A stretch of 64,000 bases of DNA, taken from IMG/VR virus record IMGVR_UViG_3300010885_039212, positions 1 to 64,000 of that record; one strand, given 5' to 3'. A program made the position numbers and the translations under genes. Origin of the DNA: a virus. Below, one piece after another: positions 25,218-47,562 of this stretch (within the stretch, counting starts at the first letter, position 1; each line of letters begins with the position of its first letter). Under the pieces are notes generated by a model, which was given only the letters and a program-made list of their open reading frames with translations, ran no database searches and had not been told where the DNA came from.

Positions 25218-25233
25218 ATTTAAGGAGATGTAT

Positions 25234-25812
25234 ATGCCAAGTGTATTTTTAGTAAGCGATACTCACTTTGGTCATGCTGGTGTATGCAGATTCACTACGC
25301 AGACTGGAGAGAAGTTAAGACCATGGGATAATGCCGATGAAATGGATGAAGCCATGGTTGAAATGTGGAATGAAACAGTGAAGCCAACTGACAAGGTTTA
25401 CCATTTAGGTGACGTTGTCATTAACCGCAAAGCCATGGGAATCATGCGCAGGTTAAATGGTGACAAAGTTTTAATTCGTGGTAACCATGATATCTTTAGA
25501 GATGATGAGTATCGTGAACACTTTCGTGAGTTACGTGCTTATCATGTGATGAATGGTATGATCTTAAGTCATATTCCTATTCATCCTGAATCTTTAGGTA
25601 GATTTGGTGTTAACATCCATGGTCATTTACACTCAGGTAGAGTGATGATGAATGATCCATTTGGACATCGTGAACCAATGATCGATCCTAGATATCATTG
25701 TGTTTGTGTTGAACAAACTGATTTTCGTCCTATCTTATTTGAACGTGTAATTGAACGCATCAAAGAAGAAGGTGGCGAAGTTGGATTTCGTAATGGTAAT
25801 GGACCAACTTAG
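25234..25812 (+). CDS. calcineurin-like metallophosphoesterase
   Basis: SDTHFGH, HLGD, GNHD, SH, HGHLH; AAGGAG RBS (ORF-track start lies inside tRNAs). Confidence 0.88.
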   Translation: MPSVFLVSDTHFGHAGVCRFTTQTGEKLRPWDNADEMDEAMVEMWNETVKPTDKVYHLGDVVINRKAMGIMRRLNGDKVLIRGNHDIFRDDEYREHFRELRAYHVMNGMILSHIPIHPESLGRFGVNIHGHLHSGRVMMNDPFGHREPMIDPRYHCVCVEQTDFRPILFERVIERIKEEGGEVGFRNGNGPT

Positions 25813-26213: not shown

Positions 26214-26288
26214 GCACGTGTGACTGAATGGTAAGGTAGCGGTTTGCAAGTCCGATGTTCGTAGGTTCGATTCCTACCACGTGTTCCA
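26214..26288 (+). tRNA. tRNA-Cys(GCA)
   Basis: Loop TT-GCA-AG, U73, weak anticodon stem, CCA. Confidence 0.8.
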
Positions 26289-26810: not shown

Positions 26811-27032
26811 AATTTAATTGCATTGGGTTACCAATACCAGTAGGTGATCTAGTTTGTCTACAACTGACGGAGTTGTAACTGCTAGATTACACGAAACCTC
26901 GAGATAATATCAGAAGGACGCTGGAGCAAGTTGGTCTGTAATGTGGTTGACAAACAAATCCGTGGACGACACGGTAGGGCAGGTTCAAAACTGTTATTTT
27001 TGTCAAACATCCCAGTGTGATTAAATTTGGTA
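26806..27032 (+). ncRNA. unknown multi-stem structured RNA
   Basis: 22-bp closing stem with G-U pairs and several internal helices. Confidence 0.6.
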
Positions 27033-27180
27033 TTAGTTTAGTGCTATCAAGGTATCGTGATCTGATCAATCACTATTCGGGTCCAACTGGCGAGGGACGG
27101 ATCCTAATATAACTGCTTAGTCGCTATGGGATGTTAGCTACAGACCCCTAAATCGAGCAGATAGCACTAAACTAATACCA
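27028..27180 (+). ncRNA. unknown structured RNA ending in ACCA
   Basis: Perfect 21-bp inverted repeat 27028-27048/27160-27180. Confidence 0.6.
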
Positions 27181-27181
27181 T

Positions 27182-27267
27182 GGAGAATGAGAAGCATTGG
27201 TGACTTCAGCAGACTGTAAATCTGTCGCCTTATGGCATATGGGGTTCGAATCCCTGATTCTCCACCA
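27182..27267 (+). tRNA. tRNA-Tyr(GTA)
   Basis: Loop CT-GTA-AA, variable arm, CCA. Confidence 0.9.
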
Positions 27268-27274
27268 AGTATTT

Positions 27275-27349
27275 GGTCTCGAAGTGTTCATGGACGCACA
27301 CAACACTGTCACTGTTGAAGAAGGGGATCGTTACCCCTCGAGACCGCCA
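27275..27349 (+). tRNA. tRNA-Asp(GTC)
   Basis: Loop CT-GTC-AC, atypical T-loop ATCGTTA, G73 CCA. Confidence 0.85.
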
Positions 27350-27356
27350 TGTTTAT

Positions 27357-27484
27357 GTCCTGGTAATCCACGCCAAGTTCGCAACTTGGGTTCTACGATG
27401 AGTTCGCAACTCATGGCAGTAGAGAGGTAAAAACCCTGTTTATAGGGTCTCCAGTGAGTAGGTGAAACTCCTATAAGGACGCCA
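27357..27484 (+). ncRNA. tRNA-like RNA with twin anticodon-like arms
   Basis: GTCCT/AGGAC-G-CCA acceptor, T-arm GTAGG-TGAAACT-CCTAT, two 5-bp stems with the identical loop TTCGCAA. Confidence 0.65.
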
Positions 27485-27680
27485 TTTTTGTTGGAATGAA
27501 TTCAAAGTCTTGTGACTTTTTTAGTAGTTCGTCAGGAACGAATTTGACAGATACATATTTATCAGGAATGAAATGTTTTGATGTAGTATAAGTCGATTGT
27601 GTGTATTTAATGTTGTCTATTTTATACAACATTAAATATGAATCTTCAGGTGGGATATGTGACATAAGTATATTTATTAT

Positions 27681-28347: not shown

Positions 28348-28821
28348 ATGTATACAATAGAACAACATAAAATCGATGATGAAATAATTTCTTCACTAGA
28401 AAGTATTTTAGATTGTTGCGTTGAGTTCAATGAGAAATTGATTCCACTGAACAGTACCTACACCAAAAATGGAATACAAACAGAGAATCTTTGTGGTTAT
28501 AAAAATGTTGATGAAGTAATAACAAAAATCTTAATCAACATAAACCATACAGAGTTGACTTGTAAACATCTGCATATGATATCTTATAACGAAGGTGGTA
28601 TGCAAGAGGTTCACGATCACGCAAAGACTGAAACACATTCTTTCGTGTTGTATCTATCGACTTGTGAAGATGGTGGTGAAACTGTCTTTATAGATGAAAC
28701 TGGTAATGAAGTTTCAGTTCCTCCAAAGAGGGGTAGTTTATTGTTATTTGATTCAAGAATACTGCACTACAGTAAACCCACAAAAAGTAAAAAGAAGGTA
28801 GTTGTTGCAGCATTAATTTAA
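28348..28821 (+). CDS. 2OG-Fe(II) oxygenase
   Basis: HDH, SFVLYL, DGGETVF, PKRGSLLLFDSRILH. Confidence 0.75.
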   Translation: MYTIEQHKIDDEIISSLESILDCCVEFNEKLIPLNSTYTKNGIQTENLCGYKNVDEVITKILININHTELTCKHLHMISYNEGGMQEVHDHAKTETHSFVLYLSTCEDGGETVFIDETGNEVSVPPKRGSLLLFDSRILHYSKPTKSKKKVVVAALI

Positions 28822-29145: not shown

Positions 29146-29835
29146 ATGAAACACATAATCACACTTTTATCGTTCGTAGCATTAAACAGTTTTTCTAAAC
29201 CAGTTGTAACTGAATCTTATGTTCTTTATGATGCAGATTCTCATACAACAATAACTGGTAAAGACATGAACGAAGTTAAACCAGTGGCTAGTTTAACTAA
29301 ATTAATGACTGCAATGATCGCAATTGACAGAGGAATTGGTGATAGAGAATCATTTGAGAAACTGCTTATTCGTTCTGATAATGGTGTGGCAGAAAGTCTC
29401 GCAAAGAAATATCCAGGTGGTAAACTAGCATTCATTAAAGCAATGAATACTAAAGCAGAATCACTTGGATTACATTACACTTCATATCATGATCCAAGTG
29501 GTCTCAGTGTTTTCAATCGTAGTACAGCAAAAGAATATGTCTCCGTAGTATTGGAAGCAAACAAGTATCCAATGATTCGAGAGATATCATCGATGCCACT
29601 CAAAAAAATAAAGAATAAAAAACGATCATACGTAATCTACAATACTAATAGTGCTCTACTAAAGGAGTATGAAAATATTGTGATAAGTAAAACAGGGTTT
29701 ACCAGTCATGCTGGTAGATGTCTTGCTTTGTATGTGGAAGAGAAACCTAAGAAGCACATTATTGTGATACTCGGTGAACCAACTCCGCAGAAGAGAGCAG
29801 AAATAGCGAGAGAGTTAATCAATATGACGAAGTAA
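29146..29835 (+). CDS. D-Ala-D-Ala carboxy/endopeptidase (peptidase S11)
   Basis: ASLTKLMT (SxxK), SDN, KTG; signal peptide. Confidence 0.88.
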   Translation: MKHIITLLSFVALNSFSKPVVTESYVLYDADSHTTITGKDMNEVKPVASLTKLMTAMIAIDRGIGDRESFEKLLIRSDNGVAESLAKKYPGGKLAFIKAMNTKAESLGLHYTSYHDPSGLSVFNRSTAKEYVSVVLEANKYPMIREISSMPLKKIKNKKRSYVIYNTNSALLKEYENIVISKTGFTSHAGRCLALYVEEKPKKHIIVILGEPTPQKRAEIARELINMTK

Positions 29836-29845
29836 GGAGATAATC

Positions 29846-30328
29846 ATGCGTCCTATCGACATCAATGAAGTAAAAACATTCATTGAAGCACAAAGTCCAG
29901 AAACAAAAATTTACATTGGGGCTGATTCCGAAAGATTTAATATAGGTAATGATTGGTACGCAGATTATACTTTGGCAATCGTTGTTCACATTAATGGTAA
30001 CAGTGGTTGTAAAATTTTTGGTGAAGTTCAGAGAGAACGTGATTATGATAGAAAGCAGAACAGACCACGTATGCGGTTAATGACTGAAGTCTACAAGATT
30101 GCAGATCTATATTTGAAACTACAAGATGTTCTTGAAGATCGAGATGTAGAAGTTCACCTAGATATTAATCCAAACGAGATGCATGGATCATCTTGTGTGA
30201 TTAATGAAGCAACAGGATATATAAGAGGTATGTGTAATGTGGTGCCATTGGTTAAACCAAATGCATTTGCGGCATCATACTGTGCAGATCGAATGAAAGA
30301 TATTTTGTCAAATAGAATGGTAGCATAA
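29846..30328 (+). CDS. RNase H-like protein (DUF458/YkuK family)
   Basis: IYIGADS, EVHLDIN, AASYCAD. Confidence 0.75.
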   Translation: MRPIDINEVKTFIEAQSPETKIYIGADSERFNIGNDWYADYTLAIVVHINGNSGCKIFGEVQRERDYDRKQNRPRMRLMTEVYKIADLYLKLQDVLEDRDVEVHLDINPNEMHGSSCVINEATGYIRGMCNVVPLVKPNAFAASYCADRMKDILSNRMVA

Positions 30329-46074: not shown

Positions 46075-46728
46075 ATGAAGACATTTATACACCATGAATT
46101 CGATAAACTCCAACGTGAAACCTCTCCCGATGGTAAAAGAGTTTACAAAACTCCGTCGGGTCGAGCCTACCCTAGCGTCACAACAGTTACAGGACTCCAC
46201 TCAGCAAAATCAATCGCACAGTGGAGAGCAAGAGTCGGAGAAGCAGAAGCCAACAGAATATCAGGTCGCGCAAGTGCACGTGGCACAAGAATCCACAGTC
46301 TCTGCGAATCATTCCTCCGCAATGAAAGATGTGAGCCTGATATCTTCGATCGAGAATTATTTCAGGGAATTTCACCCCACCTTGAAGAAATAGATAATAT
46401 ACATGCGCTTGAAGATCCTCTGTACTCAGATCATCTTGAAGTTGCGGGAACTGTTGATTGTATTGCTGAGTTTAGAGGTAAGTTATCTGTAATAGATTTT
46501 AAAACTTCAAGTAAAGTAAAAACTCGTGATGATATTCACAATTACTTTATGCAAACATCAGCATATGCAGTTGCCTTTGAAGAACGAACTGGGATTCCTG
46601 TTGGTAGACTTGTAGTTATTATGGGAGTTGATAATGAGGATCCATTGATATTTGTCGAGAAGAGAGATACTTGGATTGATGGTTTCTGCAAATTGAGAGA
46701 AGAATATAAAAATAAATTTGCTTTATAA
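46075..46728 (+). CDS. PD-(D/E)XK exonuclease
   Basis: YPSVTT, RGTRIH, AGTVD, IDFKTS, Q..AY. Confidence 0.85.
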   Translation: MKTFIHHEFDKLQRETSPDGKRVYKTPSGRAYPSVTTVTGLHSAKSIAQWRARVGEAEANRISGRASARGTRIHSLCESFLRNERCEPDIFDRELFQGISPHLEEIDNIHALEDPLYSDHLEVAGTVDCIAEFRGKLSVIDFKTSSKVKTRDDIHNYFMQTSAYAVAFEERTGIPVGRLVVIMGVDNEDPLIFVEKRDTWIDGFCKLREEYKNKFAL

Positions 46729-46752
46729 CTAAATATAAGGTATAATGAAGGT

Positions 46753-47035
46753 ATTGCTGTATGAAGTGATGTAAAACGTGTTCTGGACGGGAGTTCGATT
46801 CTCCCCACCTCCACCAAAACGGCACTACACCCCTCTTAACAATGGGCAACCTTGTAGTGCGTTTTTGATGGGGGTGACTAGGTTTCGACAGGGCAATTAG
46901 TAACTGCGTGGACAGCACATCAGAGTAGATGTTAAAACTAAACAAAGTAAACGCAAACGACTCACAGTTCGCATTGGCAGCCTAAACGCTGACTAGGGTT
47001 TCGGTAGGTTTCCTCGTAACAGAATAACCTACCAT
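46753..47035 (+). ncRNA. ssrA: circularly permuted (two-piece) tmRNA
   Basis: T-arm+CACCTCCACCA (to 46816) precedes GGGGGTG 5' end (46870); G3-U70; tag ANDSQFALAA* 46953-46985; TATAAT at 46741. Confidence 0.92.
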
Positions 47036-47058
47036 TTTTTAAATAAAGGAATATAATC

Positions 47059-47562
47059 TTGTTGGGTATTATATTAGGTAATGGACCAAGTAAACAGTTT
47101 TACGATAGAAGCGGAGACTGTGTAATTGGTTGTAATATCCCAAGCAAGGAATTTAGTGTTGACGCAACTGTAATATGTGATGTGGAGATTGTTTATCTTT
47201 TAGCGACATCTCCAGAATTAGTTCAATGTCCAGTTATTGTCAGCACTAAAGCATGGGAAAAAATGAAAGAGTTACGTATCGATCATTATTTTGATATTCG
47301 ATACGTGTTTCAACCTAAAGACTGGTATAATACTGCACATTATGCTGCAGAGTTTTTGCTCGAGCATGGAGACTTCAATACAATACATATATGGGGATGC
47401 GATTCTATATTCAGTGATACTACAGAATCTTCTACTGATAAGTTTGTAAAAAAAGAAAACACTAAAGACCAAAAATTTATTAAAAATTGGCGTAGAGTGT
47501 GGGATGAGATTTTTAACCGATACCCAAATATCGACTTTAACACGATGAGGATAGAAAAATGA
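47059..47562 (+). CDS. hypothetical protein with GNGPS motif
   Basis: ILGNGPS, IGCN, IWGCD. Confidence 0.55.
   Translation: MLGIILGNGPSKQFYDRSGDCVIGCNIPSKEFSVDATVICDVEIVYLLATSPELVQCPVIVSTKAWEKMKELRIDHYFDIRYVFQPKDWYNTAHYAAEFLLEHGDFNTIHIWGCDSIFSDTTESSTDKFVKKENTKDQKFIKNWRRVWDEIFNRYPNIDFNTMRIEK

Follow-up and report, generated by a model that had tools for sequence, protein, structure and literature searches.

The window analysed here, which is the whole stretch of DNA under study, comprises the first 64 kb of a 95.7-kb virus contig from IMG/VR (IMGVR_UViG_3300010885_039212), judged to be about 60% complete. It contains 25 transfer RNA (tRNA) genes detected by ARAGORN, one tRNA-Cys detected only by Rfam and a two-piece transfer-messenger RNA (tmRNA). 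Within the tRNA array, 7 nucleotides (nt) 3' of a tRNA-Asp whose CCA end is at 27349, we have found a gene of 128 nt (27357–27484, + strand) which would produce a tRNA-like RNA with two anticodon-type arms. Together with its homologues it points to a conserved and as yet undescribed family of phage RNAs, tRNA-like molecules which lack a D arm and carry one or two arms with the loop UUCGCAA. The baseplate-type tail protein of the contig has distant relatives in T4-type cyanophages, in the Methylophilales phage Melnitz and in pelagimyophages; the source is therefore an uncultured freshwater T4-type myophage. The sequencing runs which contain this stretch are mostly labelled as freshwater or lake-water metagenomes. 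The parts of the RNA gene and its leader are the following:

27350–27356, + strand: 5' leader or spacer UGUUUAU, between the CCA of tRNA-Asp and G+1 of the RNA, with U at position -1
27357–27363, + strand: 5' strand of the acceptor stem, GUCCUGG, which pairs with 27474–27480
27364–27372, + strand: UAAUCCACG, in place of a D arm; the D stem-loop is absent after the acceptor, from the sequence, the alignments and a comparison with the 25 tRNAs of the window
27373–27389, + strand: arm 1, CCAAG-UUCGCAA-CUUGG, in the anticodon-arm format U32 U33 C34 G35 C36 A37 A38
27390–27397, + strand: linker GUUCUACG, a second copy of the (Y)CYACG lead-in
27398–27414, + strand: arm 2, AUGAG-UUCGCAA-CUCAU, with the same UUCGCAA loop as arm 1
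27415–27457, + strand: GGCAGU, then a variable third hairpin, then AGUGA, from alignments of relatives
27458–27474, + strand: T arm GUAGG-UGAAACU-CCUAU, with a stem of 5 base pairs (bp) and a loop of 7 nt
27474–27484, + strand: 3' strand of the acceptor stem, UAAGGAC, discriminator G27481 and encoded CCA (27482–27484), from sequence reading and covariation

An earlier note on this DNA had placed an acceptor stem, a T arm, a final G plus CCA, two hairpins and a third one at these positions, and the sequence agrees. The third hairpin, described there as ACCCUG/UAGGGU, lies inside a longer one (27421–27452), with an outer stem GAGA/UCUC and an inner stem CCCUG/UAGGG, flanked by two copies of CAGU. 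In the acceptor GUCCU (27357–27361) faces AGGAC (27476–27480); its seven positions comprise five Watson-Crick pairs, a G-A mismatch and a G-U pair. Acceptor and T arm together stack over 10–12 positions, with a purine-purine mismatch at 6:67. The CCACG of the D-arm replacement is invariant in the family alignments, and its CACG resembles the 3' strand of a D stem followed by G26. ACG is found before every arm, and the unit of lead-in and arm, about 25 nt long, is repeated in tandem. The spacer in front of the gene is retained as (G/U)UUUAU in nearly all members of the family, and a promoter scan found no promoter between tRNA-Asp and the RNA. On the 3' side there is an AT-rich spacer of 196 nt (27485–27680), the RNA being the last gene before it.

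Inside the RNA gene GTTCGCAAC is found twice, and no further copy exists in the 95.7-kb contig. The bare heptamer TTCGCAA is found in the window at chance frequency (9 occurrences, 8.95 expected). Taken by itself the sequence has a fold energy of no significance (z = -1.69), and the case for more than chance therefore rests on homologues and covariation.

By pattern scans of IMG/VR and of the JGI metagenomes we have found 20 distinct family sequences, from uncultured freshwater phage contigs and metagenomes. They sit in phage tRNA arrays or in short non-coding units, and they come in two forms. The long form has 120–134 nt, two arms and the third hairpin; besides the window it is found in L184, L123, L112, L084, L163, L083, L087, L119, L181, L101, L097 and L330. 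The short form has 67–68 nt, a single arm and no third hairpin, and it is found in L183, L180, L182, L185, L186, L191 and L192. Here the acceptor is followed by GGGAAUCCACG, the arm, GGCAGUGA, the T arm, the acceptor again and NCCA, an order which reads as a tRNA in which a short loop would have replaced the D arm. The long form differs from it by an extra tandem copy of the unit "CYACG + arm + G" and by a hairpin inserted between two CAGU copies, where the short forms read straight through as GGCAGUGA. One lake contig, when aligned to the window, skips 27391–27451, which is the same relation as that between the two forms. The earlier note had called the RNA bivalent, with two identical arms. 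This holds for the member in the window, but not as a property of the family: seven relatives have one arm, and in the long form of L181 the second arm is CUUAG-GUAGCAC-CUAAG, with the loop GUAGCAC. Since one-arm and two-arm forms exist, "bivalent" fits this member and not the whole family.

The consensus of the family consists of an acceptor, a CYACG lead-in, a 5-bp stem with a UUCGCAA loop (once or twice), GGCAGUGA, a T arm with the loop UGNRANU, and NCCA. The encoded CCA is retained in 18 of the 20 distinct sequences, while the discriminator may be G, A or U. The sequence of the window scores 130.6 bits against R1, a covariance model of the long form which was built with this sequence included, and 52.6 bits (E = 6e-11) against R2, a model of the short form built without it. 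We assign the RNA on these grounds to a family which has not been described.

The gene usually lies after tRNA-Asp or before a Glu-Tyr-Asp group. Its place in the window, the last gene before the AT-rich spacer, might suggest a cis-acting structure at the 3' end of the tRNA transcript, which would protect it from exonucleases or guide its processing without any function in trans; rnaD and rnaC of phage T4, which will be discussed below, likewise close a tRNA operon. We consider this improbable. In L085, L185, L186 and L330 there are tRNA genes close downstream of the RNA, while in L182 and L183 it stands without any tRNA; besides, protection needs neither an invariant 7-nt loop nor a duplicated arm. 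In L183 (11086–11628) the short form has GC-rich flanks, apparently structured, and lies in a non-coding unit of about 480 nt between two perfect sigma-70-type promoters (TTGACA-17-TATAAT). This copy, free of tRNAs and between two promoters, shows that the RNA can be an independent gene. The genes beside the stand-alone copies in L182 and L183 are small open reading frames (ORFs) with no informative domain.

The 3' flank of the gene has features of its own. In L182, L183 and L188 a conserved sequence, UUUAAGGCAUUCA(UGCGAAA or GCUUAAG)GCUGAUGUAAGG, follows the RNA, in which there may be a hairpin or another small element. This flank is found 3' of the RNA in many relatives, not in the window. 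Lake contigs have loose ends at positions 27486–27487 of the window.

The family has a patchy distribution. The long and short covariance models gave no further homologue in 80 tRNA-cluster loci of the nearest relatives, and the short-form model found no match in seven complete or near-complete related genomes, while two positive controls were found. Because it is absent from these seven genomes, the RNA is an accessory gene; its patchy presence fits a function of the conflict type. Searches by blastn of 50,697 GenBank phage records, with the 128-nt RNA and with the 68-nt form, gave no match to the RNA, and a query with the 901-nt region matched only at the neighbouring tRNA-Tyr and tRNA-Asp segments; among the cultured phages of GenBank there is thus no carrier. 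A scan for the arm plus lead-in in 185,579 bacterial and archaeal genomes (one per prokaryote species) gave a single match, in a Sphingomonas contig; it lies within an apparent coding sequence and we take it as due to chance.

Some relatives without the RNA carry a different tRNA-derived element, in L009 (3699–3770), L013 (7816–7875) and L023 (5036–5140). It follows tRNA-Asp in the first two and tRNA-Phe in the third. A closing stem of 7–8 bp, UAGGAUC...GAUCCUG, surrounds a hairpin with a 5-bp stem and a 7-nt loop, which resembles an anticodon loop for Lys (CUUUUAA) or Thr (CUUGUAA). In L023 the same frame encloses a more complete tRNA-like core, in which a D arm and a T arm are present together with an arm whose loop is CUUAUAA.

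Covariation was studied in an alignment of 19 sequences, with 24 pairs in five helices plus the first acceptor pair; MAFFT misaligned the acceptor, whose pairing was parsed by a script. Standard pairs are found in 99.4% of the alignment cells and half of the pairs (12/24) have changed on both sides, values which none of 500 column shuffles reach. When the partners are slid by 1–3 columns as a control, only 0–3 pairs appear double-changed. The acceptor covaries (GUCCU/AGGAC, GUCCC/GGGAC, GCUCU/AGAGC, GCUCA/UGAGC, GCCC/GGGC), and so do the stems of arm 1 (CCGAG/CUCGG, CCGAG/CUUGG, CAAAG/CUUUG, CUCAG/CUGAG, CUACGG/CCGUGG) and arm 2 (GUGAG/CUCAU, AUGAA/UUCAU, GUGAA/UUCAC). The two helices of the third hairpin (helices 4 and 5) covary and change in length. 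In the T arm three of the five pairs show compensatory changes, with stems such as GCAGG/CCUGU, GCAAG/CUUGC and GAAGG/CCUUC; its loop has the family consensus U-G-N-R-A-N-U, in which U54 and A58 are retained and the UUC of normal tRNAs is absent.

The earlier note had proposed that only the loop-proximal AG/CU is kept in the two arm stems. This does not hold in the relatives, which change both pairs. Three runs contain lake contigs in which 27402 G>A is accompanied by 27410 C>U, a compensation at the pair which closes the loop of arm 2, and the same change from G-C to A-U next to the loop is found in L184; in L330 the pair of arm 1 next to the loop-closing one goes from A-U to G-C. As a result of the changes in the lake contigs and in L330, every stem position varies somewhere in the family. 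Homologues and covariation bear out the CCA-ended tRNA-like RNA of the earlier note as the product of a real and conserved gene for a structured tRNA-derived RNA, which is not a canonical tRNA.

The loop behaves in the opposite way to the stems. The first scans required UUCGCAA, and we made three further scans in which a loop was left free. With the flanks of the short form and any 16–20 nt between them there were 63 stretches: all nine family contigs have UUCGCAA, and the other 54 stretches are unrelated. For the long form UUCGCAA was found in eight of nine contigs when arm 2 was left free, the exception being L181, and in nine of nine when arm 1 was free. With 26 cases out of 27 in the three scans together, UUCGCAA is the most constrained element of the family.

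These data are very hard to reconcile with a tRNA pseudogene in decay, or with a neutral relic of duplication in the array. Other degenerate tRNA-derived elements do occur in these arrays, and the RNA is missing from many relatives; yet a core of about 50 nt is invariant over 20 distinct sequences, the stems change only in a compensatory fashion, and the encoded CCA, U54 and A58 are retained, which is the signature of purifying selection on an RNA. We give it very little weight.

The direction of reading can also be established. About 25 cells of the alignment are G-U pairs, which become A-C mismatches when the other strand is read; this indicates an RNA read from the tRNA strand. The same cells bear on the idea of a DNA-level element, paired inverted repeats which would bind a protein on double-stranded DNA. 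The sequence AGTTCGCAACT is indeed a near-palindrome, with two copies 25 bp apart. However, the stems are maintained by means of G-U cells, mismatched on DNA as well as on the other strand, and the repeats are embedded in a frame of acceptor, T arm and CCA which covaries as RNA, so that we consider the chances of this alternative negligible. Other tandem matches to AGTTCGCAACT in metagenomes do not help it: a scan for the doubled 11-mer gave 89 stretches, in which only the matches with a spacing of 35–36 nt are family members, while most consist of AGTTCGCAACT-like units repeated in short tandem arrays without relation to the family, and were set aside. Such repeats are found in L090–L169 (for example L091, L149 and L152), with periods of 11–15 nt, and they share only the 11-mer with the RNA.

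We have compared the two arms with the tRNAs which the phage itself encodes in the window. Both share the format of its 25 anticodon arms: a 5-bp stem and a 7-nt loop with pyrimidine 32, U33, a triplet, A37 and A38. This bears out the anticodon-like arms of the earlier note; as an anticodon their triplet, CGC, belongs to alanine. In front of each arm there is a CACG similar to the 3' end of the D stem plus G26 in the tRNA-Trp, tRNA-Leu(UAG) and tRNA-Gly(GCC) of the phage. Most simply, the module would be the anticodon arm of a tRNA, which retained the lead-in on its 5' side after loss of the D arm.

This likeness raises the question of a working tRNA: the short form might be a D-armless tRNA-Ala(CGC), and the long form a variant of it. 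An anticodon-type arm, a T arm which abuts the acceptor stem, a discriminator and a 3' CCA are all present, from sequence and covariation, and D-armless tRNAs are functional in animal mitochondria. Nevertheless, decoding is extremely improbable. The form in the window has two anticodon arms and a third hairpin, the discriminator is variable, and the T loop has no UUC, by which a D loop is docked. The identity pair of alanine, G3-U70, is absent: the window has C-G at 3:70, and the relatives have C-G, U-A or a reversed U-G. The phage already encodes tRNA-Ala(UGC), and GCG is its rarest alanine codon (7% of the total), with 6–12% in carrier and non-carrier genomes alike; it is neither enriched nor depleted in comparison with other NCG codons or with non-carrier phages. 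Finally, neither form is called by any tRNA finder: ARAGORN gives no gene at 27357–27484, and the Rfam tRNA model (RF00005) matches neither this interval, even at E <= 10, nor the short form of L183. When the search is extended to all 4227 Rfam models, including Y-RNA-like and riboswitch families, none overlaps 27357–27484 at E <= 10, and on the short form there are only matches at chance level (E ~0.6).

The same arms could be directed to the ribosome. Two CGC arms 8 nt apart might cover a pair of adjacent GCG codons, one in the A site and one in the P site, or the RNA might act at GCG codons as an uncharged ligand of the A site; it would then slow down host translation and spare a phage poor in GCG. 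The true anticodon-arm format and the rarity of GCG in the phage agree with this idea, but GCG is just as rare in related phages without the RNA, the one-arm form is common, and a bulky junction would have to fit in the ribosome. It is a pure inference which we find very improbable.

The tmRNA models match only at 46704–47076, with no match at the RNA gene. That region (+ strand) contains a circularly permuted two-piece tmRNA with the tag ANDSQFALAA. An 8-mer, AGUUCGCA, is common to the arms and to the frame of the tmRNA tag; we have set it aside as probably due to chance.

The tRNA array shows other features on its + strand. At 26214–26285 the Rfam model finds a tRNA with anticodon GCA (Cys) and 52.3 bits, without encoded CCA, which was missed by ARAGORN. 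The reverse is found in tRNA-Asp (27275–27349), which ARAGORN calls and which the tRNA model of Rfam does not match, even at E <= 10; in its T arm, AGGGG-AUCGUUA-CCCCU, A54 and U58 stand in place of U54 and A58. It is covered by many lake contigs and appears to be kept. The tRNA-Tyr (27182–27267) has only a sub-threshold tRNA-Sec score in Rfam, 33.9 bits. Between tRNA-Glu and tRNA-Tyr there are about 370 nt (26811–27181) without a convincing ORF or Rfam match; they include a 16-nt inverted repeat (27030–27045 with 27165–27180), and further structured RNAs may be present there. The array is interleaved with protein genes at 25219–25812, 28348–28821, 29146–29835 and 29846–30328, whose products are a calcineurin-like phosphoesterase, a 2OG-Fe(II) oxygenase, a peptidase similar to D-Ala-D-Ala carboxypeptidases and an RNase H-like protein (PF04308).

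Stable RNAs which are not tRNAs have been known in phage tRNA operons since the 1970s, from species 1 and 2 of T4. They are annotated as rnaC and rnaD beside tRNA-Arg in NC_000866, in agreement with the earlier note, which mentions two stable non-tRNA species in the tRNA cluster; their roles were unknown according to a 2010 review (PMC3014915) and their function is still unknown (PMC12685909). Both rnaC (species 1, 139 nt) and rnaD (species 2, 119 nt) are, like our RNA, non-tRNA molecules inside or at the end of a T4-type tRNA operon. In rnaC, too, paired ends and a T arm (CCGGG-UUCGAAU-CCCGG) are present, and additional hairpins take the place which the D and anticodon arms have in a tRNA. 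It differs by a canonical T loop, UUCGAAU, and an annotated end without CCA, and neither of the two T4 RNAs has repeated anticodon-type arms. Model R1, applied with filters off to the T4 tRNA region, showed no homology to either: it matches neither rnaC nor rnaD over its full length, and its highest score there, 6 bits, is for a 19-nt fragment of the T arm of rnaC. The RNA of the window, whose position and fold would suit a small stable RNA from a phage tRNA operon, thus appears to be the same kind of thing as rnaC and rnaD, in a different family.

With canonical tRNAs the RNA shares the acceptor, the discriminator, CCA, a T arm of 5 bp and 7 nt with U54 and A58, and arms in the anticodon format. 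In contrast with them it has no D arm, two anticodon arms plus a third hairpin, a purine-purine mismatch in the acceptor, a T loop UGNRANU instead of UUCRANY, and no alanine identity pair. In tRNA-Ser(AGY) of animal mitochondria the D arm is replaced by a short loop, and the short form (67–68 nt) has this same layout. The tRNA-like domain of tmRNA is also an acceptor/T-arm mimic with CCA which lacks a normal anticodon arm; our RNA differs from it by the absence of a tag reading frame, of G3-U70, of pseudoknots and of a match to the tmRNA models. Two other cases are analogies of function only. In engineered tRNA scaffolds an RNA module is placed at the position of the anticodon arm and is processed and stabilised by the tRNA machinery; here too a module lies in a tRNA frame. 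Phage decoy RNAs such as the pseudo-ToxI antitoxin mimics can gain potency through a higher number of repeats, a number which may be compared with the one-arm and two-arm forms, although repeats of the antitoxin type are not found in our RNA.

We consider it highly probable that the gene encodes a small stable RNA derived from a tRNA and transcribed on the + strand with the tRNA array. Its fold has the acceptor stem stacked on the T arm, without a D arm, and the junction carries two anticodon-arm modules (CYACG lead-in, 5-bp stem and Ala-type UUCGCAA loop) and the variable third hairpin. In general, a stack of acceptor and T arm with NCCA is the substrate of bacterial RNase P and of the exonucleases which trim 3' ends. 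An encoded CCA terminates all the 25 tRNAs called by ARAGORN in the window, and U is found at position -1 in most of them; the RNA shares both features. RNase P would cut between U27356 and G27357, and the 3' end would be trimmed back to the encoded CCA at 27484. The product would not decode: its tRNA-like half would serve as a scaffold for processing and stability, and the invariant loops would be the working part, offered as a ligand. They may titrate a factor which recognises the anticodon loops of tRNAs, either a host anticodon nuclease or another enzyme which binds such loops, and a second arm would double the binding capacity; the earlier note had suggested a nuclease decoy, an enzyme sponge or a protein scaffold.

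Our best overall explanation is such a scaffold, processed as a tRNA and non-decoding, which presents mimics of the anticodon arm and may be a decoy or sponge; we hold it tentatively, at somewhat less than an even chance. Taken alone, the function of decoy or sponge for a factor which recognises anticodon loops is the most likely one, though it is still rather doubtful. A more specific version is somewhat less likely again: a decoy on a tRNA scaffold, made by the tRNA processing of the host, which would be stable and uncharged and would titrate a host factor such as an anticodon nuclease of its defence. To the same limited degree an arms race could be recorded in the step from one arm to two and in the uneven occurrence among related phages, provided that the RNA is a decoy.

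Several observations weigh against this explanation. Accumulation as a discrete RNA, cleavage by RNase P and lack of charging are all inferred. Efficient processing by RNase P is not certain, because acceptor and T arm stack over 10–12 positions with internal mismatches and not over a clean 12 bp. The twin loops are not absolute, since the second loop of L181 differs; neither is CCA, as L181 ends in CCU and L192 in CCC. Finally, no binding partner was found by ORF co-occurrence in three carrier genomes, which are the only ones in this test, that of the window being itself about 60% complete.

In the search for a partner the window contig was compared with two other carrier genomes (150 kb and 354 kb) and six non-carriers, using ORFs of at least 50 residues and tblastn. 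No ORF of the window contig is shared with both other carriers and absent from the six non-carriers. The ORFs specific to the two complete carriers (G009 and G010) are few and have no RNA-related domain. Because no phage ORF co-occurs with the RNA, we lean to a partner which is encoded by the host or universal over a dedicated phage protein, although with three carriers, one of them incomplete, the negative result is a weak one.

The same result bears on an alternative in which the RNA is a binding platform or titrator for an RNA-binding protein of the phage, such as a translational repressor or an enzyme of RNA processing. One site would be formed by each arm and its bulged-G lead-in, in a similar way to the operator hairpins of coat proteins. 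The conserved module does exceed the loop (CYACG, the stem, then G) and is found in tandem, and a C-G pair with a bulged G is predicted below each arm. On the other hand, the missing co-occurrence and the lack of an RNA-binding domain in the ORFs specific to G009 and G010 do not favour it, and GTTCGCAAC is found nowhere else in the 95.7-kb contig, so that no copy of an operator in a messenger RNA is seen. We regard it as unlikely, but as worth keeping in mind.

A regulatory RNA which acts by base pairing is another alternative: its 7-nt loops would be seeds which kiss UUGCGAA targets in RNAs of the host or the phage. A loop which is invariant and exposed on a stable scaffold is what one would expect in this case. 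However, the complements of the loop and of the conserved single strands occur at chance level: the + strand of the 95.7-kb contig has four copies of UUGCGAA, about the number expected by chance, and none of them lies in the tRNAs or the tmRNA. Moreover a 7-nt loop with U33 and A37 is the exact format of an anticodon loop, for which mimicry of a tRNA is a simpler reading. Base pairing appears improbable to us, in the same measure as the cis-acting end considered above.

Every copy which we have found comes from uncultured lake phages. The family appears to be a second case, unrelated to rnaC and rnaD of T4, in which a phage tRNA operon encodes stable RNAs other than tRNAs. It is simpler to interpret in its design, with a reduced tRNA frame, one invariant loop of 7 nt in the format of an anticodon arm, and natural versions with one arm or two. 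Phage tRNAs are reported to replace host tRNAs which have been cleaved; if the arms are decoys for factors directed to the anticodon loop, the family would be a counter-measure made only of RNA, which acts alongside the phage tRNAs. In that case it would also provide the first testable function for RNAs of the rnaC and rnaD class. If the arms bind something else, the family would still be a natural precedent for the tRNA-scaffold trick of RNA engineering.

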